NCBI GenBank assembly: GCA_036403015.1
Contig: DASWRU010000048.1
Span: forward strand, 3,532 to 67,531
Length of the DNA: 64,000 nt
Direction of reading: 5' to 3'
DNA from: Allosphingosinicella sp.
GTDB lineage: Bacteria; Pseudomonadota; Alphaproteobacteria; Sphingomonadales; Sphingomonadaceae
The position numbers were made by a program, and so were the translations under genes. Below are positions 2,777 to 36,134 of this stretch, piece by piece; the stretch's first letter is position 1, and each line of letters opens with the position of its first letter. The notes beneath the pieces were generated by a model. The model searched no databases. It worked only from the letters and a program-made list of their open reading frames with translations, and was not told the DNA's origin.

Positions 2777-5700
2777 ATGAGACTCAAGCCCGTTGAGAGC
2801 AGCGCCGCGTCGGACGCTACGGCATCCGCACGCGGCGAAATCCGCCGCCTCCACCGCGCGCCCGAGCCCGAGGTGCTGAAGCCCCTTCTGAAGGACGCGG
2901 CGCTGACCGGCGATTCGCGGCGGCGGGTCGAGGAGCGGGCACTCGCCATGCTGAAGGAGCTGAGGGCGGCGCAGTCGTCCGGCTGGGTGAACCAGTTCCT
3001 GCAGGAATACAGGCTCAACACGTCCGAGGGGATCGCGCTGTTGTCGCTCGCCGAGGCCTTCCTGCGCGTGCCCGATCCGGAGACGGCGGACCAGCTCATC
3101 GCCGACAAGCTCGGCAATGCCGACTGGCGCGCCCACAAGGGTAGGTCGCATTCCACCCTGGTGAATAGCGCGACCTGGGGGTTGGTGATCGGGCGCGCCC
3201 TGGTCAGCGAGACCGAGCAGGCGAGCGCGCTCAAGCGGCTGATCGGACGGGTCGGCGAGCCGTTCGTTCGGCAGGCGGTCGGCGCGGCGATGCGGCTGAT
3301 GGGCGAGATTTTCGTCATGGGCCGCACCATCGACGAAGCCATCCGGCGGATGGATCGGCGGGAGAATGCCGGCTTCACCGCCAGCTTCGACATGCTCGGC
3401 GAAGCGGCGCGGACCTTTCCCGATGCGGAGCGCTATTTCGCCTCCTACGAGGGGGCGATCCGCGCCGTCGGCAAGGTGGCGAAGCGGGGGCATTCGATCT
3501 CGGTCAAGCTCTCCGCGCTCCACCCGCGCTACGAGGTAGCGCAATATGAAACCTGCGTGCCGTCGCTGATCGAGCAGGTGGAGGCGCTCGCCATGCTGGC
3601 GAAGGCGTCGGACATCGCCTTCACCATCGACGCCGAGGAGAGCGAGCGGCTCGAGATGAGCCTCGACATCATCGAGGCGGTGGCGGGGCTGCCGCCGCTC
3701 CGCGGCTGGGAGGGGCTCGGCATGGCCGTGCAGGCCTATGGCAAGAGGTGCCGGCCGACCATCGCCTGGGCGGACGCGGTGGGGGCGGCGACCGGACGGC
3801 GCATCGCGGTGCGGCTGGTCAAGGGCGCTTATTGGGACAGCGAGATCAAGCGCACTCAGGAGCAGGGGTTCGCCGACTATCCGCTCTTCACCCGCAAGGC
3901 GGCGACCGACGTCTCCTACCTCGCCTGCGCGAAAGACATGCTGGGGGCGAAGAACATCTTCTCCGCGTTCGCCACCCACAACGCGCTGACCGTGGCGACC
4001 CTGCTCGAATGGGCCGGGCCGAGCCGCGATTTCGAGTTCCAGCGCCTGCACGGCATGGGCGAGGGACTCTACGAACCGCTGGTGCGCGAGCAGGGTTACC
4101 GGACGCGCATCTATGCCCCGGTCGGCGGGCACCGCGACCTTCTCGCCTATCTCGTGCGGCGGCTGCTGGAGAATGGCGCGAATTCGAGCTTCGTCCACCA
4201 GCTCGCCGACGAACGGCTGTCCGACGCCGACATCCTCGCCGATCCGGTCGCGAAGATCGCCGCCGTCGGCGGCACCCGGCATCCGGCGATCCCGCTGCCC
4301 AAGGACCTGTTCGAGCCGGTGCGGGGGAACAGCCGGGGCATCGACCTGAACGACCGGGTAGAGCTCGAAAGAATCGCGGTTGTCGTTTCCGGAAATCCGT
4401 TCGCCCCGAGCGAAGTCGAGGGGCCCTCCCGAGCGAAGCCGAGGGCGGTTCTCGGCTCCGCTCGACGGGGTGTCTCGACTTCGCTCGACACGAACGGACA
4501 CAGGCTCACCGGCGAATCTTCCGAGGCTCCGCCCGTCACCTCCACCGGCGAAGGGGCCGCTCAATGCGCTGCCGAGGCGAAGGCGATGGTCGCGCGCGCA
4601 CTCACCGCCTTCCCGGCCTGGGACGCGCGCCCGGTCGAGGCGCGCGCCGCCTGCCTGGACCGGCTCGCCGACCTGCTCGAGCAGGAGCGGGACGCGCTGA
4701 TGCGCCTTTGCGTGCAGGAGGCGAAGAAGACCATCCCCGACGCGCTCGCCGAAGTCCGCGAGGCCGTCGACTTCTGCCGCTATTATGCCAACGAGGCGCG
4801 CCGCGGCCTTCAGCCCGTCGAGCTGCCCGGCCCCACCGGCGAGCGCAACATCCTGCGCATGGCCGGCCGCGGCGCCTGGGTCTGCATCGCGCCTTGGAAT
4901 TTTCCGCTCGCCATTTTGCTCGGGCAGGTGACGGCGGCGCTGGTCGCCGGCAACGCGGTGATCGCCAAGCCCGCGCCGCAGACGCCGGAGATCGCGGCTT
5001 ATGCCGTCGGCCTCGCGCACGGCGCCGGCATCCCGGAGGATGCGCTGATCCTCGCCCCGGGCGGGCCGGACATGGGAGCCGCCCTGGTGGAGGACAGCCG
5101 CATCGCCGGCATCGCCTTCACCGGCTCGACCGCCACCGCCAAAAGGATCGCGCGCGAGCTGCTCAGCGACGACGAGCGGCCGATCATCCCGTTCATCGCG
5201 GAAACCGGCGGCATCAACGCGATGATCGTCGATTCGACCGCCTTGCCCGAGCAGGTGGTGGTGGACGTCGTCACCTCCGCCTTCCGCTCCGCCGGCCAGC
5301 GCTGCTCGGCGCTGCGCGTGCTGCTGCTTCAGGAGGAGATAGCGGAGCGGACACTGGAGATGCTCGCCGGGGCGATGGATACTTTGATTGTCGGCGATCC
5401 GGCCGACCCGCGGACCGACGTCGGCCCGGTGATCGACGAGGGCGCCTATGCGCGGCTGATGGCGCATCGCGAGGAGACAAGGGCGGATTGGATTCATACC
5501 GTGGGCATCTCCAAGCCCCTCCCCTTCAGGGGAGGGGAAGAGCCCGGCGCAGCTGGGCGAAGGGGTGGGGCCGGTCCGACTGACAAGCCCCACCCCAACC
5601 CCTCCCCTGAAGGGGAGGGGCTATTCGTCCCACCCACCTTGATCCGGGTCGCCCGGGTCGAGGACGTGAGGAGGGAATGGTTCGGGCCGCTCCTCCACGT

Positions 5701-6034
5701 CGCCACCTGGAAGGCAGGGCAGCTCGCCGAGACGGTGGAGCGCGTCAACCGCTCCGGCTTCGGCCTCACCATGGGCCTCCACAGCCGCATCGCCCGCGCG
5801 GCCGAGACGGTCGAGGAGACGGCGACGGTCGGCAACCTCTACGTCAACCGATCGATGATCGGCGCCATCGTCGGCTCCCAACCGTTCGGCGGCGAAGGGC
5901 TGAGCGGCACCGGCCCCAAGGCCGGCGGCCCGCATTATTTGCCGCGCTTCTGCGCCGAGCGGGTGACCAGCACCGACACCACTTCGGCGGGCGGCAATGC
6001 GACCTTGCTGTCGCTGGAGGATGTGGGGCTCTGA
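2777..6034 (+). CDS. putA: bifunctional proline dehydrogenase / P5C dehydrogenase PutA (no N-terminal RHH domain)
   Basis: 1085 aa. PRODH barrel motifs (SVKLSALHPRY, VRLVKGAYWD, FQRLHGMGE) followed by an ALDH domain (FTGSTATAK, ETGGINAMIVD, GQRCSALR, GFGLTMGLHS). Contains two repeat-derived in-frame segments. Confidence 0.93.
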   Translation: MRLKPVESSAASDATASARGEIRRLHRAPEPEVLKPLLKDAALTGDSRRRVEERALAMLKELRAAQSSGWVNQFLQEYRLNTSEGIALLSLAEAFLRVPDPETADQLIADKLGNADWRAHKGRSHSTLVNSATWGLVIGRALVSETEQASALKRLIGRVGEPFVRQAVGAAMRLMGEIFVMGRTIDEAIRRMDRRENAGFTASFDMLGEAARTFPDAERYFASYEGAIRAVGKVAKRGHSISVKLSALHPRYEVAQYETCVPSLIEQVEALAMLAKASDIAFTIDAEESERLEMSLDIIEAVAGLPPLRGWEGLGMAVQAYGKRCRPTIAWADAVGAATGRRIAVRLVKGAYWDSEIKRTQEQGFADYPLFTRKAATDVSYLACAKDMLGAKNIFSAFATHNALTVATLLEWAGPSRDFEFQRLHGMGEGLYEPLVREQGYRTRIYAPVGGHRDLLAYLVRRLLENGANSSFVHQLADERLSDADILADPVAKIAAVGGTRHPAIPLPKDLFEPVRGNSRGIDLNDRVELERIAVVVSGNPFAPSEVEGPSRAKPRAVLGSARRGVSTSLDTNGHRLTGESSEAPPVTSTGEGAAQCAAEAKAMVARALTAFPAWDARPVEARAACLDRLADLLEQERDALMRLCVQEAKKTIPDALAEVREAVDFCRYYANEARRGLQPVELPGPTGERNILRMAGRGAWVCIAPWNFPLAILLGQVTAALVAGNAVIAKPAPQTPEIAAYAVGLAHGAGIPEDALILAPGGPDMGAALVEDSRIAGIAFTGSTATAKRIARELLSDDERPIIPFIAETGGINAMIVDSTALPEQVVVDVVTSAFRSAGQRCSALRVLLLQEEIAERTLEMLAGAMDTLIVGDPADPRTDVGPVIDEGAYARLMAHREETRADWIHTVGISKPLPFRGGEEPGAAGRRGGAGPTDKPHPNPSPEGEGLFVPPTLIRVARVEDVRREWFGPLLHVATWKAGQLAETVERVNRSGFGLTMGLHSRIARAAETVEETATVGNLYVNRSMIGAIVGSQPFGGEGLSGTGPKAGGPHYLPRFCAERVTSTDTTSAGGNATLLSLEDVGL
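4408..4486. repeat. REP-like nested hairpin (family C) inside the putA linker
   Basis: Perfect 13-bp arms GAGCGAAGTCGAG (4408-4420) and CTCGACTTCGCTC (4474-4486), with a second nested inverted repeat between them. Translates to the ...PSEVEG...VSTSLDTNG peptide typical of translated alphaproteobacterial REPs. Confidence 0.7.
5516..5620. repeat. family B double-hairpin element inside the putA ALDH domain
   Basis: Hairpins CCCCTCCCC-TTCA-GGGGAGGGG (5516-5537) and CCCCTCCCC-TGAA-GGGGAGGGG (5599-5620). The core GACAAGCCCCACCCCAACCCCTCCCCTGAAGGGGAGGGGCT is nearly identical to the intergenic copy at 7419-7528. Confidence 0.8.
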
Positions 6035-8812: not shown

Positions 8813-10027
8813 TCATTCCTGCCCCTGGGGCTCCTTGCCGGGCTGGTCCGGATCCGAGGACTCGTCCTCCGCCTCCTGCGCCATCAGCGTCACCGGCGGG
8901 TAGGGCATGATGAGCGTCCCGTCCGGCGCCGCCGTGAAACTGGTCTGGCTCGGGTAGGCGAGCTGGATGTTCTCGCGGTTGAAGCGGTCGAGGATGGCGA
9001 GGCAGATGGCGTGGCGGGCGCCGAACACCTCTTCGTAATTGGTCGAGTGGACGTCGAATTGCAGCTCGAAGTCGAGGGTGGAGGCGCCGAATCCGGTCAT
9101 GCCGCAGCGCACCAGGCTGGTCTTGGGCTGGTCTTCCACGATCTCCTTCAGCATAGCCGGCAGCCGGGCGCATGTTTCCGGCGGCGTCTGGCAGACGAGG
9201 CCGAGCTGCATGACGATGCGCCTGTGCTCCAAATGCGCGAAATTGTGGATTTGCTGCTCCAGCAATTTGGAATTGGCGACGACGATCTGCTCGCCGCTGA
9301 GCGAGCGGATGCGGGTCGTCTTGAGGCCGATATTCTCGACATTGCCGCTGACGTCGCCGAAGCGGATGCCCTCGCCCTTGCGGAACGGCTTGTCGAACAG
9401 GATCGAGAGGGCGGCGAAGAGATCGGAGAAGATGCCCTGCGCGGCGAGGCCGATGGCGATGCCGCCGACGCCGAGGCCCGCCACCAGTCCGGTGACGTTG
9501 ACCCCCAGATTGTCGAGGATGAGGATGATCGCGATCGCGAACAGGGTGACGGTGACGAGCAGGCGGATGATGCCCACCGCGGAGCCGAGCGTCGTATGCT
9601 CCTCATTGGCGCCGACGCGGTGCTCGATATAGCCGAGCACCAGCTCGCGCGCCCAGATCGCTGCCTGGATGGCGAAAGCGATGACGAAGAGGGCGTTGAC
9701 GAAGCTGAGCAGGGTGGGCGGCGTGTCCGCATGCTCCGCCACCAGCTCCGCCGAGGCGAGGACGATGAAATAGACCTTGGTCTTGGCGAGCACCCGGGCG
9801 AAGATGACCGGCCAATGCGGGTCGCCGCCCCAGCGGGTGATGAGCTTGCAGCCGAGCGAGCGGATGGCGAGCATCGCCAGAGCCAGCGCAACGCCGATCG
9901 CCACGGCAATCAGGAGGCCGACGAGATTGCCGCCGATCCACTGCGACGCCTCGAGGGCGAGCCGATGGCTCTTCTCGCCGACGCCGGCGACCGTCTGGGT
10001 TACGGAGCCCGAATTCGCGAAGATCAT
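8813..10027 (-). CDS. mechanosensitive ion channel (MscS family)
   Basis: N-terminal TM helices followed by FDKPFRKGEGIRFGDVSGNVENIGLKTTRIRSLSGEQIVVANSKL. Confidence 0.88.
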   Translation of the reverse strand: MIFANSGSVTQTVAGVGEKSHRLALEASQWIGGNLVGLLIAVAIGVALALAMLAIRSLGCKLITRWGGDPHWPVIFARVLAKTKVYFIVLASAELVAEHADTPPTLLSFVNALFVIAFAIQAAIWARELVLGYIEHRVGANEEHTTLGSAVGIIRLLVTVTLFAIAIILILDNLGVNVTGLVAGLGVGGIAIGLAAQGIFSDLFAALSILFDKPFRKGEGIRFGDVSGNVENIGLKTTRIRSLSGEQIVVANSKLLEQQIHNFAHLEHRRIVMQLGLVCQTPPETCARLPAMLKEIVEDQPKTSLVRCGMTGFGASTLDFELQFDVHSTNYEEVFGARHAICLAILDRFNRENIQLAYPSQTSFTAAPDGTLIMPYPPVTLMAQEAEDESSDPDQPGKEPQGQE

Positions 10028-11127
10028 CAGGCCGCTTCCGCCTTCAGCCTCGTTTCCGCCTCGGCCGCCATGTCCGCCTCCACCTGCCGTTTCGACTTGC
10101 GAGCGGCCTTTGCCCGATGTTCGGCCTTGCCGTCCAGCTTGCGGGCTTCTTCGGGCAAGGCGTCGAGGAACTCGATCAGGCCCCTTTCTCCCGCGGAGAG
10201 GTATTTGGTCGGGCGCGGGAGACGGCGCTCGCCGATCGCTCCGGCGTCCTTGGCCGCCTCGATCAGCGCCGGATGGACGTAGGATTTCCGGCTGATCGCG
10301 GGCGTGTTGCCGAGCGCCTCCGCGACCGGCGCGATGACGCTCTTGAGCTTGACGCTGCCGTGCTTGCGCATCCGCCGCTCCATCTCCTCGAACGCGATGA
10401 CGCTCGCGCCCCAGGTGCGGAAGTCCTTTGCGGTGAAATCGTCGCCCATCACCGCCTTGATGTAACCGTTGACGTCGCCGGAGGTGACGGGACAGACCTC
10501 GCCCTCCTCGTTCACATATTCGAACAAATTCTGGCCCGGCAGGTCCTGCGTCCGCCTGGCGATGCGGACGAGGTTGCGGTCCGCGATCGTCACCGTCCGC
10601 CGGATCCCGTGCTTGCCCGCATAAGTGATCTTCAGCCGCCCGCGCTCCACCTTCGCGTGGCGGTTACGCAGGGTAGTCGCGCCGAAGCTCTTGTTCTCCT
10701 TGGCATATTCCTCGTTGCCGACGCGCATCCTGGTTTCGTCGATCAGCCGCACCACCGCCGCAAGCACCGTCTCCGGCGCCGTCGCCTTCCCCTTCAGATC
10801 CTCCTCGACCTGCTTGCGAAGCTTGGGCAGGGTGCGGCCGAACGCCGCGAGCCGCTCATATTTCAGCGCTTCCTGCTGCGCGCGGAAGCCGGGATGGTAA
10901 CGATATTGCCGCCGTCCCTTGGAGTCGTAGCCGATCGCCTGGATGTGGCCGTCGGGATCGGCGCAGAACCAGCAGCGCTCATAGGCCGGGGGCATGCCGA
11001 CGGCGTTGAGGCGGTCGATCTCCTCGCGGTCGGTCACCCGGCTGCCGTCGGCGCGGAAATATTGCCAGTAGCGCCCGCGGCGCTTGCGGGTGATGCCGGG
11101 CAGGGAATCGTCGACATAGCGGAGCAT
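10027..11127 (-). CDS. DNA topoisomerase IB (poxvirus-like bacterial type)
   Basis: YVDDSLPGITRKRRG N-terminus, GYDSKGRRQYRYHP, and catalytic-Tyr region AISRKSYVHPALIEA. Confidence 0.85.
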   Translation of the reverse strand: MLRYVDDSLPGITRKRRGRYWQYFRADGSRVTDREEIDRLNAVGMPPAYERCWFCADPDGHIQAIGYDSKGRRQYRYHPGFRAQQEALKYERLAAFGRTLPKLRKQVEEDLKGKATAPETVLAAVVRLIDETRMRVGNEEYAKENKSFGATTLRNRHAKVERGRLKITYAGKHGIRRTVTIADRNLVRIARRTQDLPGQNLFEYVNEEGEVCPVTSGDVNGYIKAVMGDDFTAKDFRTWGASVIAFEEMERRMRKHGSVKLKSVIAPVAEALGNTPAISRKSYVHPALIEAAKDAGAIGERRLPRPTKYLSAGERGLIEFLDALPEEARKLDGKAEHRAKAARKSKRQVEADMAAEAETRLKAEAA

Positions 11128-15365: not shown

Positions 15366-15380
15366 GTTCCTGCTATGTTC
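15366..15380. promoter_or_regulatory. alphaproteobacterial SOS (LexA) box
   Basis: Exact GTTC-N7-GTTC direct repeat (GTTCctgctatGTTC), 22-36 nt upstream of the ATG at 15344. Confidence 0.55.
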
Positions 15381-15438: not shown

Positions 15439-16083
15439 ATGAAAGCTGATCCACGCGCGGCGCTCGATCGCCTCATTCAAGAGCGGGGGGACGATTATGT
15501 CGGCCTGTCGCGGCTGATCGGCCGCAACGCCGCTTATGTGCAGCAATATATCAAGCGGGGGACGCCGAAGCGGTTGGCCGAGGACGACCGCCGAGTGCTG
15601 GCCGGCTATTTCGGCGTCGATGAGACGCTGCTCGGCGGGCCCGCGCGTTCCGCGCCGGGCGGCGGGCTGGTGCCCGTCCCGCGCCTCGACGTCGGCGCTT
15701 CGGCGGGGGCGGGCGCTCTCGATCCGACGGAGCGGGCGGTCGGCAGCATGGCCTTCGACCCGGGGTGGCTGCGCCGCCTCGGGGTCGCCGATCCGGGCCG
15801 GCTGTCCATGATCCGGGTCGCCGGCGAGTCGATGGCGCCGACGCTCTCGGACGGCGACGAGATATTGGTGGACGGCGGCGATTCCGCCGCCAGGCTGAGA
15901 GAGGGGGTCTACGCCTTGCGGATCGACGATGCGCTGGTGGTGAAGAGGGTGACGCCCGGTCCCGCCGCCGGCCGCATCTCGGTGCGTAGCGACAATCCCG
16001 ACTATCCGGGCTGGCCCGATTGCGACCCGGCCGGCATCGACGTGGTCGGCCGCGTCGTCTGGGTCGGGAGACGCCTCGGCTAG
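15439..16083 (+). CDS. S24 peptidase / CI-LexA-like repressor
   Basis: N-terminal HTH (VGLSRLIGRNAAYVQQYIKRG). C-terminal autopeptidase with GESMAPTL (Ser) and ALVVKRV (Lys). Confidence 0.85.
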   Translation: MKADPRAALDRLIQERGDDYVGLSRLIGRNAAYVQQYIKRGTPKRLAEDDRRVLAGYFGVDETLLGGPARSAPGGGLVPVPRLDVGASAGAGALDPTERAVGSMAFDPGWLRRLGVADPGRLSMIRVAGESMAPTLSDGDEILVDGGDSAARLREGVYALRIDDALVVKRVTPGPAAGRISVRSDNPDYPGWPDCDPAGIDVVGRVVWVGRRLG

Positions 16084-28124: not shown

Positions 28125-28471
28125 GGCCGGAGATTAGGGGCTCCGGCCGGGCTTGCGAAGCCCATTCGGAAACGACGGGCCTTTAGCGCGCCCGCGCGGT
28201 CGCTTCGGCGCACCTCAAACCCACTAAAATGGTGGATAAGTGATTTACCGTCTTGGCGAAGGTTTCCGATTGAGGCACTATCACTGGTGGCGCTGCCAAG
28301 GGGGTGACGCTAGACCTTGTGGAAAGTCGCTGCGCAACCTATATGGGTCGCGAGGCGGTGGAGCTGTGTCCTGTGGATATCGGGGACAGAGTGAAATGAG
28401 CGCCCCGCACCCCCCGCAAAGTGCTTAAGCTGGTGTAAACCGGCTGGAACGCAAATAGAACAAGGGGTAGG

Positions 28472-30652: not shown

Positions 30653-31732
30653 ATGCCCCTCCTCACCGCCTCCAAGACCTACAAGCCGTTCGAATATCCC
30701 TGGGCGTTCGAATTCTGGAAGCGCCAGCAGCAGATCCACTGGATGCCGGAGGAGGTCCCCCTCGGCGAGGATTGCCGCGACTGGGCGCAGAAATTGACCG
30801 ACCACGAGCGCTCGCTCCTCACCCAGATCTTCCGCTTCTTCACCCAGGCCGACATCGAGGTGCAGGATTGCTACCACGACAAATATGGCCGCGTGTTCAA
30901 GCCGGTCGAGGTCAAGATGATGCTGACCGCTTTCTCCAACATGGAGACGGTCCACATCGCCGCTTATTCGCACCTACTCGACACGATCGGCATGCCGGAG
31001 AGCGAATACAGCGCCTTCATGCAGTATAAGGAGATGAAGGATAAGCACGATTACCTCGCCACGTTCGGAGTCGACACGGACGAGGACATCGCCAGGACGC
31101 TCGCCATGTTCGGCGGCTTCACCGAGGGTCTTCAGCTCTTCGCCAGCTTCGCGATGCTGATGAACTTCCCGCGCTTCAACAAGATGAAGGGCATGGGCCA
31201 GATCGTCAGCTGGTCGGTCCGCGACGAGAGCCTCCATTGCGAGGGCATCACCCGCCTGTTCCACGCCTTCGTCAAGGAGCGGAACTGCATGACCAAGGCG
31301 GTGCGCGACGATATCATGGACGTCTGCCAGAAGACGGTGCGCCTCGAGGACGCCTTCATCGACCTCGCCTTCGAGCAGGGCCCGGTCCCCGGCATGACCC
31401 CCAAGGAGATCAAGAAGTACATCCGCTACATCGCCGACTGGCGGCTGGGCCAATTGGGCTTCCAGCCCATCTACATGATCGACGACCACCCTTTGCCGTG
31501 GCTGGCCCCCCTCCTCAACGGGGTGGAACACGCCAACTTCTTCGAAACGCGGGCGACCGAATATTCCAAGGCCGCGACCCGTGGGAATTGGGGCGAGGTC
31601 TGGGACAATTTCGACCGCCGGAAAGCGGCCAAGGCGGCCAACGACGGCGCGGCTGGCGTGGCCGCGGCGGCCGAGGCGAAGGCCGAGGGCGGCGAGGACA
31701 TGTTCACCCGGGCGGGCGTCGCGGCTGAATAG
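30653..31732 (+). CDS. nrdB: ribonucleoside-diphosphate reductase beta subunit
   Basis: Ferritin-like di-iron motifs (FFTQADIEV, ETVHIAAYSHL, FASFAMLM, DESLHCEG). The last roughly 50 codons are duplicated at 32208-32376. Confidence 0.9.
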   Translation: MPLLTASKTYKPFEYPWAFEFWKRQQQIHWMPEEVPLGEDCRDWAQKLTDHERSLLTQIFRFFTQADIEVQDCYHDKYGRVFKPVEVKMMLTAFSNMETVHIAAYSHLLDTIGMPESEYSAFMQYKEMKDKHDYLATFGVDTDEDIARTLAMFGGFTEGLQLFASFAMLMNFPRFNKMKGMGQIVSWSVRDESLHCEGITRLFHAFVKERNCMTKAVRDDIMDVCQKTVRLEDAFIDLAFEQGPVPGMTPKEIKKYIRYIADWRLGQLGFQPIYMIDDHPLPWLAPLLNGVEHANFFETRATEYSKAATRGNWGEVWDNFDRRKAAKAANDGAAGVAAAAEAKAEGGEDMFTRAGVAAE

Positions 31733-32016
31733 TGGAGGAGGTCGAGTTCGATCCGGTGAAGAGCGAGGAGAATCTTCGCCTGCGCGGTCTCCCGCTCGAG
31801 GCCGCCATCCTGCTCTTCGACGGACCATATATCGAAGAGCAGGACACCCGTCGTGATTATGGCGAGACGCGCTTCGTAGCCACCGGCCCGATTGAGGCGT
31901 TTGGCGATCGCGTCTTTGTGGTCGTATATACCTGGCGGGACGCGGTGCGGCGGATCATCAGTTTCAGGAGGGCCAATGGCCGAGAAATCCGAAAATACCG
32001 TGCGGATATCGCATGA
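31732..32016 (+). CDS. brnT: BrnT family toxin (type II TA ribonuclease)
   Basis: VEFDPVKSEENLRLRGLPLEAA...RVFVVVYTWRDAVRRIISFRRANGREIRKY matches the BrnT/DUF497 pattern. The GTG start overlaps the nrdB TAG. Confidence 0.8.
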   Translation: MEEVEFDPVKSEENLRLRGLPLEAAILLFDGPYIEEQDTRRDYGETRFVATGPIEAFGDRVFVVVYTWRDAVRRIISFRRANGREIRKYRADIA

Positions 32017-32203
32017 AGAGGCGCTGCGGCGCGCCCGCGAGTGGGCGACGCCGGAGAATCTCGCGCGCCTCGACGCGATGACCGACGAGGATATCGCCGC
32101 CCAGATCGCCAGCAACCCCGACGCCGCCCCCGAGCTCACCGACGAATGGTTCGAGAACGCGCGGCTGGTGATCCCGCTCAAGGGGCGCAAGCGCGCGGCG
32201 TGA
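31976..32203 (+). CDS. brnA: BrnA-type antitoxin (DUF4415-like)
   Basis: 75 aa. The MTDEDIAAQIASNPDAAPELTDEWFENARLV pattern overlaps the brnT 3' end. Confidence 0.7.
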   Translation: MAEKSENTVRISHEEALRRAREWATPENLARLDAMTDEDIAAQIASNPDAAPELTDEWFENARLVIPLKGRKRAA

Positions 32204-32207
32204 TGGT

Positions 32208-32376
32208 GGGGCAATTGGGGCGAGGTTTGGGACAGCGCAATCGTCCGGGGGACGACGAAGCCGACCGCCGCAAGCAGGCGAAGGCGGCGAATGACGGGGC
32301 GGCTTGCGTGGCGGCCGAGGCGAAGGCCGAGGGCGGCGAGGACATGTTCACGCGCGCGGGGGTCGGGGCGGAGTAG
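32208..32376 (+). pseudogene. displaced, frameshifted remnant of the nrdB 3' end
   Basis: Aligns to 31583-31732, including a 42-nt identical run (31666-31707 = 32310-32351). An indel after GGGACA breaks the frame. It retains a ...EAKAEGGEDMFTRAGVGAE* ending. Confidence 0.8.
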
Positions 32377-32475
32377 CTTGCTCTGAACAGGGTTGTACGG
32401 TATGGAACGAACATGGAACATGCATCATCAGCCGGAGGGCACTGCCGACTGGGCTCAAACAGCGTCGAGGCGGTA

Positions 32476-32979
32476 ATGTACGACGTGCGGGACGTAGCCA
32501 ATTTGACGCTGGATTTCGCCGAGGAGCGTCGATTGCCTATTACCAATCTCGCGCTTCAGAAGCTCCTGTATTTCGTGCATGGCTGGTTCTATTCATTATA
32601 TGACCAGCCACTAATAAAGAATAAGTTTGAGGCGTGGCAGTATGGGCCAGTCCAAAGGGTAATTTACGATCAGTTCAAATCGTGCAGAGACAGTCCAATT
32701 CGCAGTCTCCGAGCTACTTATATCGATCCCTTAAGCGGCGAACCCACGTATCGCGAGCCCTGTATAACTGCGGAGCATGCATGCGTAATTCGAGGCGTCC
32801 TTGAGAAATATGAGCGCTATACCGTAGGCCAATTAGTGGAAGAGTCTCACGCAGAGGACGGGCCGTGGGAATACGTGTGGAAGCAGGCAGAAGACGCAAT
32901 ATACCCTGGAATGAAGATTCCAGATGCGCTTATCCTCGACCATTTTAGGCGCTTGGCGCCTATACTCACTTTGCACTGA
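32476..32979 (+). CDS. Panacea (DUF4065) domain antitoxin-like protein (SocA/PanA type)
   Basis: MYDVRDVANLTLDF...ITNLALQKLLYFVHGWFYSLYDQPLIKNKFEAWQYGPVQRVIYDQF is the DUF4065 hallmark. Lies in the AT-rich segment. Confidence 0.7.
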   Translation: MYDVRDVANLTLDFAEERRLPITNLALQKLLYFVHGWFYSLYDQPLIKNKFEAWQYGPVQRVIYDQFKSCRDSPIRSLRATYIDPLSGEPTYREPCITAEHACVIRGVLEKYERYTVGQLVEESHAEDGPWEYVWKQAEDAIYPGMKIPDALILDHFRRLAPILTLH

Positions 32980-32990
32980 GGAGAGAGACG

Positions 32991-33683
32991 TTGGGTCGGA
33001 ACGTAGATTTGCTGGATGCCGCTCGAATGACTGCGGCAACGACCCGGGAGACGGCGCTGCGGGTAAGCCAGTATTTTGGCGATGCAGGACCATTCAGTTA
33101 CGGAAATGTGCGTCGGCTCACGCCCGTGTTGCTCGAAGGGGCGATGCCCTATGCTGTGGCCATCGCCGGGCTCCAGCGCATAAAGTTTGAGTTAGCTCGT
33201 AAATGCAACCTAGACGTGGCAGAGCTTGTAGCTGCCTGTACACAATTCAGAGGGCGGACTTTCTACAAGCTGAAAAGACTTCTCTACGCAATTGACCGTG
33301 ATTTTGCTCTCTCTATTCGACCAGAAACTGTAGCAGTTTTGGATGGCATTCCACATCTTATATTCCTGCAGCCTAGAAAGACGGCGACGCCGTGGGCTTA
33401 CAGTCCGAGCTTTATGAGGCGAGTGCTTGAAGAAGTCTACAGCGACTACTTCCAGGAATTTCGCCTTTGGCTAATCGACACCGAGGCTCTTGGAGATGAA
33501 GATAGGGAGCTAAGGGTGGTCGATCTCCAGGCTGTCGCTCCCATGGGGGAGAGAGAGTTCACACGACGAATCGCATCGCTTCGCAAGGCGTGGCGTCTTT
33601 ATCTAACGGGACCGCGTCCAAAGAAGGACCGTCCCGGAAGGTCCGACGATCGGCAGAAAGATTTCGGCTTCGATGATGAGTGA
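32991..33683 (+). CDS. orphan 230-aa protein (candidate PanT-type toxin or MTase partner)
   Basis: TTG start 5 nt after a GAGGAGAGAG RBS and 11 nt after the DUF4065 stop. The 3' end overlaps the MTase start by 11 nt. No motif recognised. Confidence 0.55.
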   Translation: MGRNVDLLDAARMTAATTRETALRVSQYFGDAGPFSYGNVRRLTPVLLEGAMPYAVAIAGLQRIKFELARKCNLDVAELVAACTQFRGRTFYKLKRLLYAIDRDFALSIRPETVAVLDGIPHLIFLQPRKTATPWAYSPSFMRRVLEEVYSDYFQEFRLWLIDTEALGDEDRELRVVDLQAVAPMGEREFTRRIASLRKAWRLYLTGPRPKKDRPGRSDDRQKDFGFDDE

Positions 33684-34353
33684 CCTGTTCCCGCGGCCAT
33701 CATTGGAAGAGAACGATTTGAGCGAGGCTGGGATCGATCTCCTAGCCAGCGCGCGCGGGAGGAAGTTCGGGACAATCCTCGCCGACCCCCCGTGGCAGTT
33801 CCAGAACCGCACCGGCAAGGTTGCGCCGGAGCACAAGCGCCTTTCGCGCTACGGCACGATGACGCTGGACGAGATTTGCGCGCTGCCGGTCGAGGACATC
33901 GCCGCCGACCCCTCGCACCTGTACCTCTGGGTGCCGAACGCGCTGCTGCCCGAGGGGCTGAAAGTGATGGACGCCTGGGGCTATCGGTACATTTCCAACA
34001 TCGTCTGGCACAAGGTCCGCAAGGACGGCGGCTCGGACGGGCGTGGCGTCGGCTTCTACTTCCGCAACGTCACCGAGATCCTGCTGTTCGGCGTCCGCGG
34101 CAAGAACGCCCGAACGCTCGCTCCCGGCCGCAGCCAGGTCAACATGATCCAGAGCCGTAAACGCGAGCACAGCCGCAAACCGGACGAGCAGTACAAGATA
34201 ATCGAGGACTGCAGCTTCACACCACGGCTGGAAATGTTTAGCCGTGGCAAGCGGCGCGGCTGGACCGCCTGGGGCAACCAGGCCGACCATGACTACAAAC
34301 CCACCTGGGACACCTACGGCTACAACAGCGCCACGGACATCGCGGCCGAATAA
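33673..34353 (+). CDS. MT-A70 family N6-adenine DNA methyltransferase (minimal, 226 aa)
   Basis: ILADPPWQF catalytic motif, YLWVPNALL and EHSRKPDEQYKIIE. Confidence 0.85.
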   Translation: MMSDLFPRPSLEENDLSEAGIDLLASARGRKFGTILADPPWQFQNRTGKVAPEHKRLSRYGTMTLDEICALPVEDIAADPSHLYLWVPNALLPEGLKVMDAWGYRYISNIVWHKVRKDGGSDGRGVGFYFRNVTEILLFGVRGKNARTLAPGRSQVNMIQSRKREHSRKPDEQYKIIEDCSFTPRLEMFSRGKRRGWTAWGNQADHDYKPTWDTYGYNSATDIAAE

Positions 34354-35172
34354 TCAGTCCTCGTCCTCTTCTTCGGCGAGGAACTCGGCCGCCGCTCTTG
34401 CATCCAGAACGGCGTGCGCCTTCCTCCAGTCTTCCAACTCCGTGAAGATGGCTTCCTTGAAGCCCAACGCCAAAAGAGGACATCCCCCTGCCCGTCCGGC
34501 ATTTACCCGGTAGTCGAGCTTGCCCATCCATGTGGTGCTGGCGCCATACTTGTCCTTGAAGGATTTCACCGTATTCAAGCGGCTCGCTATGTCGGCAAAC
34601 ATCGCAGTCAGGCCTGTTGAACGCGTCAGGATTATACCGACATCGATGATGCCGCATTCGTAGAAGGCGCGCATGGCGTACAGATCGCGGTCGAACGTTT
34701 GGTCCTTGCTGTTCCACTCGAGATCGAACGCCACTCGGTCCTTCACGAAATCCACCTGGTGTCCATCGAGGAAGTTTTCCAGCAAACTCACATCCTCAAC
34801 TTTCAGGAACTTCGGACTCTTGGCCCGAGTGTTAAGAGCTCTAGCGGCCTTCCGCACCAGAAGGTCGCCGGATATCCTGGTCTCGTTCCAGCCCAATGGA
34901 TGAAGCAGCGCTTCGAGCTTTTTAGCGACTTGGCTCTTGTTCCCGCCCTTCTTGAGGATGTCCTCCATCTGGATCTCGAAGGAATTCAGGATTTCGAAGA
35001 GCTGCCGCACCTCACCACCATGGGCGGTGGAAAGCAGAATCGCTGCGTTCCGAAAGCTCTTGATCTCGTACTTTGCGCTGAAGCCCTCCGGCAGCAGCCC
35101 CTTCGGAAGCCGATCCTCGGTCGCTATTCTGGGCAGTGCCGCAAGCGCGTTCTTGAGTGGGTCGTCAGTCAT
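34354..35172 (-). CDS. type II restriction endonuclease, BglII/BamHI-like fold
   Basis: Inner start MTDDPL. VDFVKDRVAFDLEWNSKDQTFDRDLYAMRAFYECGIIDVGIILTR resembles the BglII-family D-x8-(D/E)-x-(E/Q) core. Coupled to the C gene by ATGACTGA. Confidence 0.6.
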   Translation of the reverse strand: MTDDPLKNALAALPRIATEDRLPKGLLPEGFSAKYEIKSFRNAAILLSTAHGGEVRQLFEILNSFEIQMEDILKKGGNKSQVAKKLEALLHPLGWNETRISGDLLVRKAARALNTRAKSPKFLKVEDVSLLENFLDGHQVDFVKDRVAFDLEWNSKDQTFDRDLYAMRAFYECGIIDVGIILTRSTGLTAMFADIASRLNTVKSFKDKYGASTTWMGKLDYRVNAGRAGGCPLLALGFKEAIFTELEDWRKAHAVLDARAAAEFLAEEEDED

Positions 35173-35404
35173 CCTGTTGTTCCTGGGCGGGCAGCGCAGC
35201 GTTTGGCAAGCCACTGCCCGGCGGGAGCACTCCTCCTTCGGCGGCAAACCGTACCCCGGTCATCTCGAACGCTCGACGAACGGCTTCCAGGTTGGGAGAG
35301 CGGGGCGTGCTCTCCCCCTGTTCGAAGCGAAGGATCGTCTTCCGATTCACGCCTGCTGCGGCAGCGAGATCGTCGAGGGACCAGCACAGCGCCGCCCGCG
35401 CCAT
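35165..35404 (-). CDS. XRE-family HTH controller (C) protein
   Basis: 79 aa. LCWSLDDLAAAAGVNRKTILRFEQGESTP HTH. Lies immediately upstream of the nuclease gene and overlaps it. Confidence 0.7.
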   Translation of the reverse strand: MARAALCWSLDDLAAAAGVNRKTILRFEQGESTPRSPNLEAVRRAFEMTGVRFAAEGGVLPPGSGLPNAALPAQEQQDD

Positions 35405-35466
35405 TCGGCATTGGACCGGAAGCAGATCATGAGCGGCGATACATACCCCCTTGACCAGCCCAAGTA

Positions 35467-35485
35467 GTGGGACTAAACGTCCCAC
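35467..35485. promoter_or_regulatory. candidate C-box operator
   Basis: Perfect inverted repeat GTGGGAC-TAAAC-GTCCCAC (contains GACT...GTC), 63-81 nt upstream of the C-gene ATG. Confidence 0.45.
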
Positions 35486-35506
35486 TGCAAAAGGAGACCC
35501 TCAGGC

Positions 35507-35983
35507 ATGGCTGCCGCGAGGCATAACCTGACGCGCCGGGCGTTGCTAGGCGCGGGTGTCGTCGCTTGCGCGGCGGGCACAAGGGACAGTCACTTGCTGA
35601 CTGTCCCGTTCTCAGGCACCGGCGCATCAGGGGATAGTCGGCAAGCGACTGTCCCCTGCCTCCGCCGTCGTTGGGCGCTCACCCTCGCCGCCTATCGCCG
35701 CGCCGAGGCGCGGGTGGCGGCGTTCAAGGCGGAGGAGGCGCTGCTGCCGGCGGCACGGCGCGCCTATCCGGCATGTAAGGACCTTGAGGAGCGCTTCGGC
35801 GACCTCGACAGCCTCCGCCTCGCGGCGCTCCGGCGCCTGCTCCGCCTTCCTGCGCCGGACGTCGCCGCTCTCGCCCTCAAGCTCGAACTCGCGGTCGCGG
35901 ATTTCGTCTGGGAGCTCACCGGCTGCGAAGCCTGCCTTGCCGCCGTCGCAGCGGACGCGCGGCGGCTGGCGCAGGATGCCTGA
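35507..35983 (+). CDS. hypothetical protein (158 aa)
   Basis: AAGGAG RBS and high-GC codon usage. The N-terminal third is occupied by two DNA hairpins, so the true start may be further downstream. Confidence 0.45.
   Translation: MAAARHNLTRRALLGAGVVACAAGTRDSHLLTVPFSGTGASGDSRQATVPCLRRRWALTLAAYRRAEARVAAFKAEEALLPAARRAYPACKDLEERFGDLDSLRLAALRRLLRLPAPDVAALALKLELAVADFVWELTGCEACLAAVAADARRLAQDA
35583..35656. repeat. pair of GGGAC-stem hairpins
   Basis: GGGACAGTCA-CTTGC-TGACTGTCCC (35583-35607) and GGGGATAGTCG-GCAAG-CGACTGTCCCC (35630-35656). Confidence 0.7.
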
Positions 35984-36134
35984 CGGGCTCGCTCCCGTCG
36001 GCAACCCACAGCGGCCATCGGCCCAATCCCATTGAACGCGGATGCCGATTGGGCCACAACAGGTATTTTCCTACGCCTCCTTCTGGCGTAGATGTTCGGC
36101 TTCCGTTCTCCTCACATCGATTCGGAGCCATGGC

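Follow-up and report, generated by a model that had tools for sequence, protein, structure and literature searches.

A probable SocAB-type toxin-antitoxin module next to a type II restriction-modification cassette in an Allosphingosinicella genome

Introduction

Three tightly packed genes in a 64,000-nt stretch of DNA from Allosphingosinicella sp. (contig DASWRU010000048.1) encode, in this order, a protein with a Panacea domain, a 230-aa protein and an MT-A70 methyltransferase, the last of which faces a nuclease gene on the opposite strand. Do these genes form one system that has not been described before, or are they known modules that lie side by side? An earlier note on this DNA took the former view, and regarded the 230-aa protein as an orphan in which no motif could be placed. 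Below, the window is the whole 64,000-nt stretch, and positions are counted from its first letter.

In Caulobacter, SocB (WP_010921343.1), the classic partner of SocA, is a clamp-binding inhibitor of replication that is degraded by ClpXP with SocA as the adaptor, an arrangement classed as type VI. In E. coli, this SocB showed no toxicity. The SocAB system of Caulobacter crescentus was reportedly described as a type VI toxin-antitoxin system by Aakre and colleagues in 2013.

We propose, with a probability of roughly 0.8, that the window contains a SocAB-type toxin-antitoxin (TA) module beside a standard type II restriction-modification (R-M) cassette, and that these are two independent modules of known kinds. 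The first module, the SocAB-type TA operon, spans positions 32378-33683; the second, at 33673-35485, consists of the MT-A70 adenine methyltransferase and a convergent pair formed by a helix-turn-helix (HTH) gene and the nuclease gene. The physical description given in the earlier note was accurate, in that the three open reading frames (ORFs), their spacing and their AT-rich composition are borne out by the ORF map, the sequence and the GC profile. What has changed is the identity of the 230-aa protein and the way in which the three genes belong together.

Results

The 230-aa protein belongs to the SocB superfamily

The gene of the 230-aa protein (32991..33683, forward strand), which we call socB-like, starts with TTG 11 nt past the stop codon of the Panacea gene, and the ribosome-binding sequence GAGGAGAGAG is present at 32979-32988, 3-12 nt upstream; spacing, start codon and binding site had all been recognized before and are confirmed in the sequence. 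The product matches the NCBIfam model SocB_toxin (NF047746) with 23.9 bits and an E-value of 1.8e-5, residues 5-205 aligning with model positions 4-215 of 228, and this is its only NCBIfam match. It has 118 close homologues that are 53-89% identical, and those with a named source all come from Sphingomonadales. The Pfam family PF26318, "SocB", is recorded for four proteins of this close family (P0074, P0084, P0095 and P0097), and also for three distant relatives (P0126, P0127 and P0301). When a profile of 18 family members was searched against 1.8 billion representatives, 65 matches were obtained, about 50 of them full-length (228-251 aa). Among 51 distant relatives, 27 match SocB_toxin, with a best E-value of 1.3e-9, and no other NCBIfam family was matched. 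No protein named SocB turned up in the profile search. Furthermore, a profile-profile comparison (hhalign) of the close family with the distant set gave a probability of 100 and an E-value of 2.5e-42 over 229 columns, that is, over the full length, although the identity of the 230-aa protein to the wider SocB superfamily is at the level of about 20%.

The ratio of non-synonymous to synonymous substitution rates (dN/dS) of the socB-like gene, calculated against a homologue with 89% identity, is 0.046, equal to that of the adjoining socA-like gene (0.046). The 118 homologues together with this strong purifying selection show that the gene is real. No homologues of the 230-aa protein were found on plasmids. 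Because there is no match at the equivalog level, and the comparison was with family models and relatives, membership is set at the level of the superfamily: the evidence supports the view that the 230-aa protein is a divergent member of the SocB superfamily, as judged from its sequence, and not the equivalog of Caulobacter SocB. The label of orphan is therefore dropped, given the SocB_toxin match, the 118 close homologues, and the superfamily members with Pfam SocB that are encoded behind SocA.

The partner gene encodes a SocA-like protein

The first gene of the trio (32476..32979, forward strand) encodes a 167-aa SocA-like antitoxin or adaptor with a Panacea (DUF4065) domain. The domain was recognized by Pfam (PF13274, SocA_Panacea) with an E-value of 6.6e-22 and a score of 79 bits, the Pfam cutoff being 25.7, and the protein contains ...NLALQKLLYFVHGW...FEAWQYGPV, in which WQYGPV provides the GPV signature of the Panacea domain (PMC8832971). 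The Panacea/SocA-type hallmark previously seen by eye is thus upheld by Pfam. The NCBIfam model SocA_antitoxin (NF047745) gave 163.6 bits, with residues 23-180 on model positions 1-157 of 176. There are 228 SocA homologues at an E-value of at most 1e-10, mostly of 167 aa among the 120 listed, all of which are close relatives from sphingomonads. A longer ORF starting at ATG 32413 (188 aa) was considered and rejected as unlikely to be real, because the homologues begin at a conserved MYD and a conserved box resembling an operator covers position 32413.

For the study of gene order we used 15 close-family loci with a readable upstream side, the window included; where needed they are distinguished by numbers (L001 and so on). 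A SocA_Panacea gene is located directly upstream of the socB-like gene in every member examined, both in the close family (15/15) and in three of three distant families, which is the arrangement expected of a SocB toxin. The idea that the 230-aa protein is a toxin neutralized by the adjacent Panacea protein consequently stands in its first part, whereas its supposed newness does not, since the protein falls in the SocB superfamily and its kind is represented in the literature by PanT cluster T10.

How the SocA-like protein would act is a separate question. The PanA antitoxins tested so far neutralize their toxins without ClpXP or Lon, in complex with them (PMC8832971), and the SocA-like protein stays narrowly under the SocA equivalog cutoff (163.6 versus 190 bits). 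It is therefore conceivable, though we do not favor it, that the window encodes a SocB-type toxin in a plain type II PanAT pair, with direct sequestration by SocA and without involvement of ClpXP. However, the only characterized pair of the SocB family acts through ClpXP, the SocA-like protein fits the SocA model far better than the toxin fits that of SocB, and the modes of direct binding and of ClpXP delivery are not mutually exclusive.

A clamp-binding-type tail and a nuclease-like predicted fold

Two further features can be placed in the protein for which no motif was previously seen. The first is its C-terminal tail, in which a basic linker rich in K, R and P (residues 207-221), predicted by AlphaFold2 to be disordered, is followed by the terminal sequence DDRQKDFGFDDE. 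A motif search in the tails of the homologues identified here a motif of the beta-clamp-binding type, QKDFGF, at residues 222-227 (33654..33671, forward strand). When the final 14 residues were searched for the pattern Qxx[LFIM]x?[FLW], 91% of 105 close homologues had it, versus 1.5% after shuffling, as did 37% of 67 distant relatives, versus 2.8%. PDLF or PGLF is the ending of many other distant tails, and textbook forms such as QLDIF, QFDLF and QDDLF are seen in some. The bacterial clamp-binding consensus is QL(S/D)LF, located at the C-terminus of clamp binders, and SocB is stated in a review to bind the clamp with a clamp-binding motif of the usual kind (PMC9690074). Judging from this resemblance, we infer that the QKDFGF tail may bind the sliding clamp DnaN.

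The second feature is the predicted fold. Two AlphaFold2 runs resulted in the same model, with a mean predicted local distance difference test score (pLDDT) of 82 and then 87, and a predicted template modeling score (pTM) of 0.78 and then 0.81. The model has an N-terminal helical region and a RecB/Cas4-like alpha/beta core, together covering residues ~1-206, with a core order of beta-beta-beta-beta-alpha-beta-beta-alpha and disorder from about residue 207. The Foldseek search that the earlier note had suggested was run, and matched PD-(D/E)xK nucleases almost exclusively in both libraries. In the Protein Data Bank (PDB), the top matches are all nucleases of this type: Cas4 SSO0001 was matched with an E-value of 9e-4, the probability to Cas4, RecE and AdnAB was 0.97-1.00, and MGME1, AddAB, HincII and Hjc were also found. 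In BFVD there were 31 matches with an E-value of at most 1e-3, of which most of those that have a name are RecB-family, PD-(D/E)xK, Cas4 or other exonucleases; phage RecB-family nucleases were matched at 1e-5. The alpha-beta-beta-beta-alpha-beta core of PD-(D/E)xK enzymes is discernible in the predicted model, at TM-scores to nuclease folds of a modest 0.31-0.49.

Residues Y37, N73, Q127, R129 and K130 (in the motif FLQPRK), D163 and R172 are conserved throughout the superfamily. On the other hand, no catalytic D...(D/E)xK triad is conserved in the family alignments: at the positions to which the strand order points, the sequence is P111-E/x and Q127-P-R129, and distant relatives do not conserve the acidic residue. 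Because the model matches nuclease folds but the canonical residues cannot be placed, we read the 230-aa protein as having a RecB/Cas4-like predicted fold with a degenerate or non-canonical site. The same structural matches, and the near-invariance of the polar residues among those listed above (all except Y37), would also fit an active RecB/Cas4-fold nuclease toxin that is tethered to the clamp by its tail and cuts at replication forks. We consider this improbable, since the TM-scores are modest, the triad is unplaceable, and there is no sequence match to nuclease families or to PDB chains (a profile search of PDB sequences gave nothing, even at an E-value of 10). Moreover, the literature that we consulted on canonical SocB presents it as a clamp-binding inhibitor with no mention of nuclease activity, and our literature search found nothing linking SocB to a nuclease fold.

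A fixed address behind nrdAB and a variable slot

The order nrdB, socA, socB-like is found in all 15 close-family loci. By contrast, an MT-A70 gene and a BglII-family nuclease gene follow the socB-like gene in only 4 of the 15 assessable loci (the window, L003, L005 and L019). The slot carries other cargo elsewhere, for instance BrnTA in L001, and a DUF2442 and NTase pair in L002. In L009, from Allosphingosinicella, a DuOB protein and two DUF488 proteins (4334-6029) take the place of the R-M cassette, for which reason we regard the locus as a small variable island for defense and addiction cargo. The other neighbors of the three distant families differ again (Kiwa, ssb/uvrA and hisS/pgi), and no MT-A70 gene is present beside any of these three. 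One distant SocA/SocB pair, in which Pfam SocB is recognized (L013/L014, 1876-4699), is encoded directly downstream of a Kiwa defense system (KwaA/KwaB). Locus L026, a contig of 1.2 kb with an inverted arrangement, was treated as an assembly artefact. The survey of homologues therefore bears out the proposed linkage with SocA/DUF4065, seen in every member, but not that with MT-A70, and it speaks against an undescribed three-gene system: a SocAB-type TA pair next to a standard R-M cassette describes the locus better.

The segment had been described as visibly AT-richer than its surroundings, and it is, the GC content being 0.50-0.55 within 32.5-33.5 kb versus 0.65-0.73 in the flanks. This does not apply equally to all genes. 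GC content at third codon positions (GC3) is 0.55 for socA, 0.54 for socB-like, 0.72 for the nuclease gene, 0.86 for the methyltransferase gene and 0.91 for nrdAB; thus, socA and socB-like carry the low GC of the window, the nuclease gene does so partly, and the methyltransferase gene is host-like. In the eight loci compared (the window, L001-L005, L009 and L022), socA and socB-like have a GC3 of 0.35-0.67, versus 0.81-0.91 for the adjoining nrdB. We rejected the possibility that socAB is a recent AT-rich island, because its GC3 is low in every genome while its position is constant. Repeated recombinational replacement, or selection for low expression, are possible reasons for the low GC3 at a fixed address.

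A LexA-type box in front of socA

A putative socAB promoter (32378..32406, forward strand) can be read in the sequence as TTGCTC (32378-32383) and TATGGA (32401-32406) with a 17-nt spacer. Across loci, TTGA or TTGC right after the nrdB stop codon and a TAT or TAA element are kept. The promoter is proposed tentatively, since a scan for generic sigma-70 promoters and terminators gave nothing above chance. The conserved element before which the TAT or TAA lies is a GAAC-N7-GAAC box (GAACGAACATGGAAC; 32405..32419, forward strand), recognized by alignment of the spacers and located 57 nt ahead of the socA ATG. An nrdB-socA spacer is present in 13 loci. Twelve of these contain the box without any mismatch, at -50 to -77 relative to socA, and L001 differs from it at one position; the spacers are otherwise little conserved. 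The box is also present at -24 in a distant socA/socB-like pair of Robiginitomaculum. At the level of the motif, it is an operator of the alphaproteobacterial LexA/SOS type: GAAC-N7-GAAC is the reverse complement of GTTCN7GTTC, the SOS box of Caulobacter (PMC9578287, Table 1). Moreover, socAB is listed among the SOS-induced TA systems (PMC12700426), was up 14-17-fold alongside SOS genes under iron limitation (PMC6120978), and its toxin SocB reportedly builds up once DNA has been damaged. Together, these data suggest that the socAB operon may be SOS-induced through the conserved LexA-type box.

The window contains five GAAC-N7-GAAC boxes, with 1.24 expected. One of these, at 15366-15380, is located 59 nt ahead of a gene (15439-16083) for a 214-aa LexA/CI-like repressor with HTH and Peptidase_S24 domains, which argues that the box is a real operator type in this genome. 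Another, at 28447-28461, lies 25 nt ahead of the nrdA start (28472), and Sphingobium boeckii (L001, 1959-1973) likewise has a box at -28 from nrdA; on this basis, LexA may in these bacteria control the ribonucleotide reductase operon as well. One or both of the remaining two boxes may be due to chance: that at 36094-36108 precedes an internal ATG (36132) of orf248, a conserved neighbor, by ~24 nt, and that at 35267-35281 falls within the HTH gene, with the nuclease start ~95 nt further downstream. In two metagenome contigs (L024 and L025), socA starts 4 nt past the nrdB stop codon; in the absence of both spacer and box, socAB would be read with nrdB.

The restriction-modification cassette

The methyltransferase gene (33673..34353, forward strand) encodes a type II DNA methyltransferase of the MT-A70 family (PF05063, E-value 6.8e-31, 107.9 bits; PADLOC MTase_II, 308.7 bits) that contains the DPPW motif within ADPPWQF. 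The 11-nt overlap with the socB-like stop codon reported earlier is correct for the longest ORF, which begins with ATGATG. The true start is uncertain, however: the first ~15 residues are unconserved, and TTG 33718, preceded by the Shine-Dalgarno-like sequence GGAAGAG, is an alternative. The convergent gene (34354..35172, reverse strand) encodes a type II endonuclease of the BglII/BstYI family, of 272 aa when started at ATG 35172 (PF09195, E-value 3.5e-41, 141 bits; scanned in Pfam as the ORF 34354-35247). Among PDB sequences, the nuclease has BstYI as its only relative, and the methyltransferase is related to ciliate MTA1c and METTL3. The methyltransferase stop codon TAA (34351-34353) abuts the nuclease stop codon (34354-34356) with no base and no terminator-like structure in between, and hence the convergent transcripts must overlap. 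An Rfam scan of the window detected no RNA family.

Upstream of the nuclease gene lies that of an XRE-type, C-protein-like HTH regulator (35165..35404, reverse strand), of ~79 aa from ATG 35404 (HTH_3, E-value 3.1e-6; PADLOC Control_protein, E-value 1.1e-8; scanned in Pfam as the ORF 35165-35485). Its stop codon overlaps the nuclease start (ATGACTGA). A perfect palindrome, GTGGGAC-TAAAC-GTCCCAC (35467..35485), read in the sequence where the HTH gene and orf158 diverge, is a candidate operator; L003 and L009 have a different perfect palindrome at this site, with a conserved TTGAC on one side and the ribosome-binding site of orf158 on the other. HTH gene and orf158 form a conserved divergent pair (window, 35165-35983; L003, ~9214-10148; L009, 6246-7025). 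Since L009 has this pair and the palindrome without the R-M genes, the HTH protein may be a resident regulator behind which the nuclease gene landed; in L005, the reverse is found, R-M without the HTH gene.

That methyltransferase and nuclease make up an ordinary cassette is indicated by the recurrence of the pair, both in L003, L005 and L019 and on plasmids. Methyltransferases 72-76% identical to that of the window are encoded on plasmids of Rhizobium, Agrobacterium, Xanthomonas and Comamonas, and matches of 63-75% occur in Deinococcus and actinobacteria. In all three plasmid neighborhoods that we inspected, which represent three proteobacterial classes (Rhizobium sp. B230/85 NZ_CP072159, Xanthomonas citri pXfc37 and Comamonas resistens pZM22-2), the methyltransferase gene lies beside a BglII/BstYI nuclease gene, convergent or co-directional, often with unrelated TA genes nearby, and no SocB-like gene is present in any of them. 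As to palindrome avoidance, GGATCC is scarce in the window (7 versus 20 expected) and AGATCT is not (10 versus 12), but 64 kb is too small a stretch to reveal the R-M target in this way.

The junction between the two modules deserves attention. In all four loci that have the methyltransferase gene, its distance to the stop codon of socB is -11, -11, 0 or +18 nt, leaving no room for a promoter of its own. In L005 (4500-4521) and L019 (997-1002), the methyltransferase gene is in the socB-like frame with only a stop codon between them, which in L019 is TGA, followed by GTG. Because the gene is always butted against the socB stop codon, it is probably co-transcribed from the socAB message, to judge from the arrangement, and translational coupling is possible. 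We read this junction as gene packing and not as functional dependence.

A different reading would be that the methyltransferase is wired into an SOS- and TA-controlled socAB transcript, so that the balance of methylation against nuclease is tied to the damage state. Besides the junction, this has in its favor the LexA-type box upstream of the operon and the pattern of conservation among the four R-M loci, in which the methyltransferases hold steady at 80-90% identity while the SocB-like proteins range over 56-89% and the nucleases were swapped or diverged to 29-60% (the window nuclease is only 29-40% identical to those of L003, L005 and L019, and one of the four nuclease genes is co-directional). 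Nevertheless, we give such an integrated unit little credence. Firstly, the methyltransferase gene is absent from 11 of the 15 loci, where unrelated cargo fills the slot, and the same cassette exists on plasmids without SocAB in both orientations. Secondly, the enzyme stays similar (72-76% identical) even across phyla, so its conservation is intrinsic. Thirdly, the difference in GC3 between the methyltransferase gene (0.86) and socAB (0.54) argues for separate histories.

The earlier proposal that the 230-aa protein assists a minimal MT-A70 enzyme as its DNA-recognition or scaffold partner, in the manner of METTL3-METTL14, can practically be set aside: it has on its side the adjacency, the possible translational overlap and the fact that the closest solved relatives of the enzyme are heteromeric eukaryotic MT-A70 complexes, but MT-A70 is missing beside the 230-aa family in 11 of the 15 close loci and wherever distant loci were examined, SocA is the partner that the family always has, the protein has no similarity to MT-A70 or any other methyltransferase as a METTL14-like subunit would, and closely related MT-A70 genes function in two-gene plasmid cassettes without a SocB-like gene, so the methyltransferase needs no such partner.

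Neighboring genes

In the window, a separate TA cassette of the BrnTA type (31732..32203, forward strand) is inserted between nrdB and socA. It consists of the gene of BrnT (31732-32016; BrnT_toxin PF04365, E-value 1.9e-19), whose GTG start overlaps the nrdB stop codon, and a BrnA-like gene (31976-32203). The cassette is flanked by a duplication of ~150 nt of the nrdB 3' end: a decayed duplicate lies at 32210..32376 (forward strand; direct repeats D1, D2 and D6, 77-92% identical), and the original-type copy, at 31583-31732, is nearer to the nrdB tails of relatives. The closest relative, L003, lacks the BrnTA insertion and has only ~100 bp from nrdB to socA, and in L001 the BrnTA genes are on the opposite side of socAB.

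Discussion

The view that the locus is made up of a SocAB-type TA module and a standard R-M cassette rests on homology, the pairing with SocA and the conserved gene order, sequence motifs, a predicted fold and purifying selection. Several points weigh against it. The support is computational throughout. The SocB_toxin score of 23.9 bits is far under the equivalog cutoff of 210 bits, which was reached by none of the 65 profile matches either, nor by any of the 71 distant matches scanned, and scans of Pfam, PADLOC and PHROGs yielded no match for the 230-aa protein. The relation to SocB goes through family models and relatives, not through Caulobacter SocB itself, and the tail was likewise compared with the clamp-binding consensus, not with the position of the motif in canonical SocB. 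The nuclease-like predicted fold could signal some other toxic activity. Finally, the fact that the methyltransferase is better conserved than the SocB-like protein (80-90% versus 56-89%) could mean more than packing, and so could the tight junction that recurs in four loci.

If the SocAB-type reading is correct, the two modules may work as follows. Cleavage of LexA would derepress the socAB operon. The toxin tail would plug the sliding clamp DnaN at its hydrophobic cleft, as in the case of Caulobacter SocB, and the polymerase would be displaced from the clamp, stalling replication elongation. The SocA-like protein would keep the toxin low in one or both of two ways: by passing it to ClpXP, which is the type VI mode of Caulobacter, or by binding it directly, which is the type II mode of other PanA proteins. 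The methyltransferase would be carried on the socAB transcript, and the nuclease would be produced from the opposite strand, behind the HTH gene. A bolder combination, to which we attach a low probability, is that SocB-superfamily toxins are clamp-tethered proteins of RecB/Cas4 fold that act at the fork as nucleases or as DNA-gripping pseudo-nucleases; in sphingomonads, they would then form a LexA-controlled, nrdAB-linked SOS brake on replication, whose transcript captured an R-M methyltransferase, tying self-methylation to damage.

Neither module is new in kind, the SocB toxin type and the R-M cassette with MT-A70 and a BglII-type nuclease being already known. What the analysis adds is that about 120 "hypothetical proteins" of Sphingomonadales can be labeled as SocB-type toxins paired with SocA, in a toxin family so far studied in one organism only. 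It also adds details to this family: a RecB/Cas4-like predicted fold, a C-terminal clamp-type peptide after a basic linker, a conserved LexA-type operator, and a constant chromosomal position after the ribonucleotide reductase genes, with a slot behind it in which defense and addiction cargo gathers. The recurrent joining of a methyltransferase gene to the toxin gene is notable as well. If the fold is functionally relevant, the view of SocB toxicity would change; otherwise, the locus is an ordinary one.

Comparison with known systems

The closest known system is SocAB of Caulobacter crescentus. The two have in common the layout of two genes, of which the first encodes SocA with its Panacea domain and the second a toxin of ~230 aa, the alphaproteobacterial host, a motif of the clamp-binding type and a link with DNA damage and the SOS response; also, the antitoxin of the window matches the SocA model strongly and the toxin matches the SocB model weakly but over its full length. 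On the other hand, the toxin of the window is at the ~20% identity level, both proteins are below their equivalog cutoffs, and the sphingomonad pair is fixed behind nrdAB and has a persistently low GC3. Within the PanAT systems, PanT cluster T10 (Kurata et al. 2022, PMC8832971) contains Caulobacter SocB and about 35 mostly alphaproteobacterial proteins, one of them from Sphingomonas paucimobilis. As in T10, a Panacea antitoxin is encoded here beside a "hypothetical protein" toxin, a likeness of family, clade membership aside; the PanATs that were tested are of type II, in contrast to SocAB, which is of type VI (PMC8832971).

The plasmid cassettes of MT-A70 and BglII/BstYI genes resemble the second module in their methyltransferase (72-76% identical), in the family of the adjacent nuclease and in the frequent proximity of TA genes. 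They differ in that the methyltransferase gene of the window is joined to the socB-like 3' end, its nuclease gene lies behind an HTH gene, and the whole is chromosomal. SOS-regulated TA operons, such as Caulobacter higBA and E. coli dinB-yafNO, share a LexA operator over the TA promoter, which here is recognized as a motif; however, their toxins are RNases or ribosome-dependent, whereas that of the window is predicted to act against the replisome clamp. Lastly, the RecB, Cas4 and RecE nucleases of the PD-(D/E)xK class have the overall fold that is predicted for the 230-aa protein, as found in two structure libraries, and are set apart from it by features that it lacks, namely the D...(D/E)xK and QxxxY motifs, the Fe-S cysteines and any similarity in sequence.

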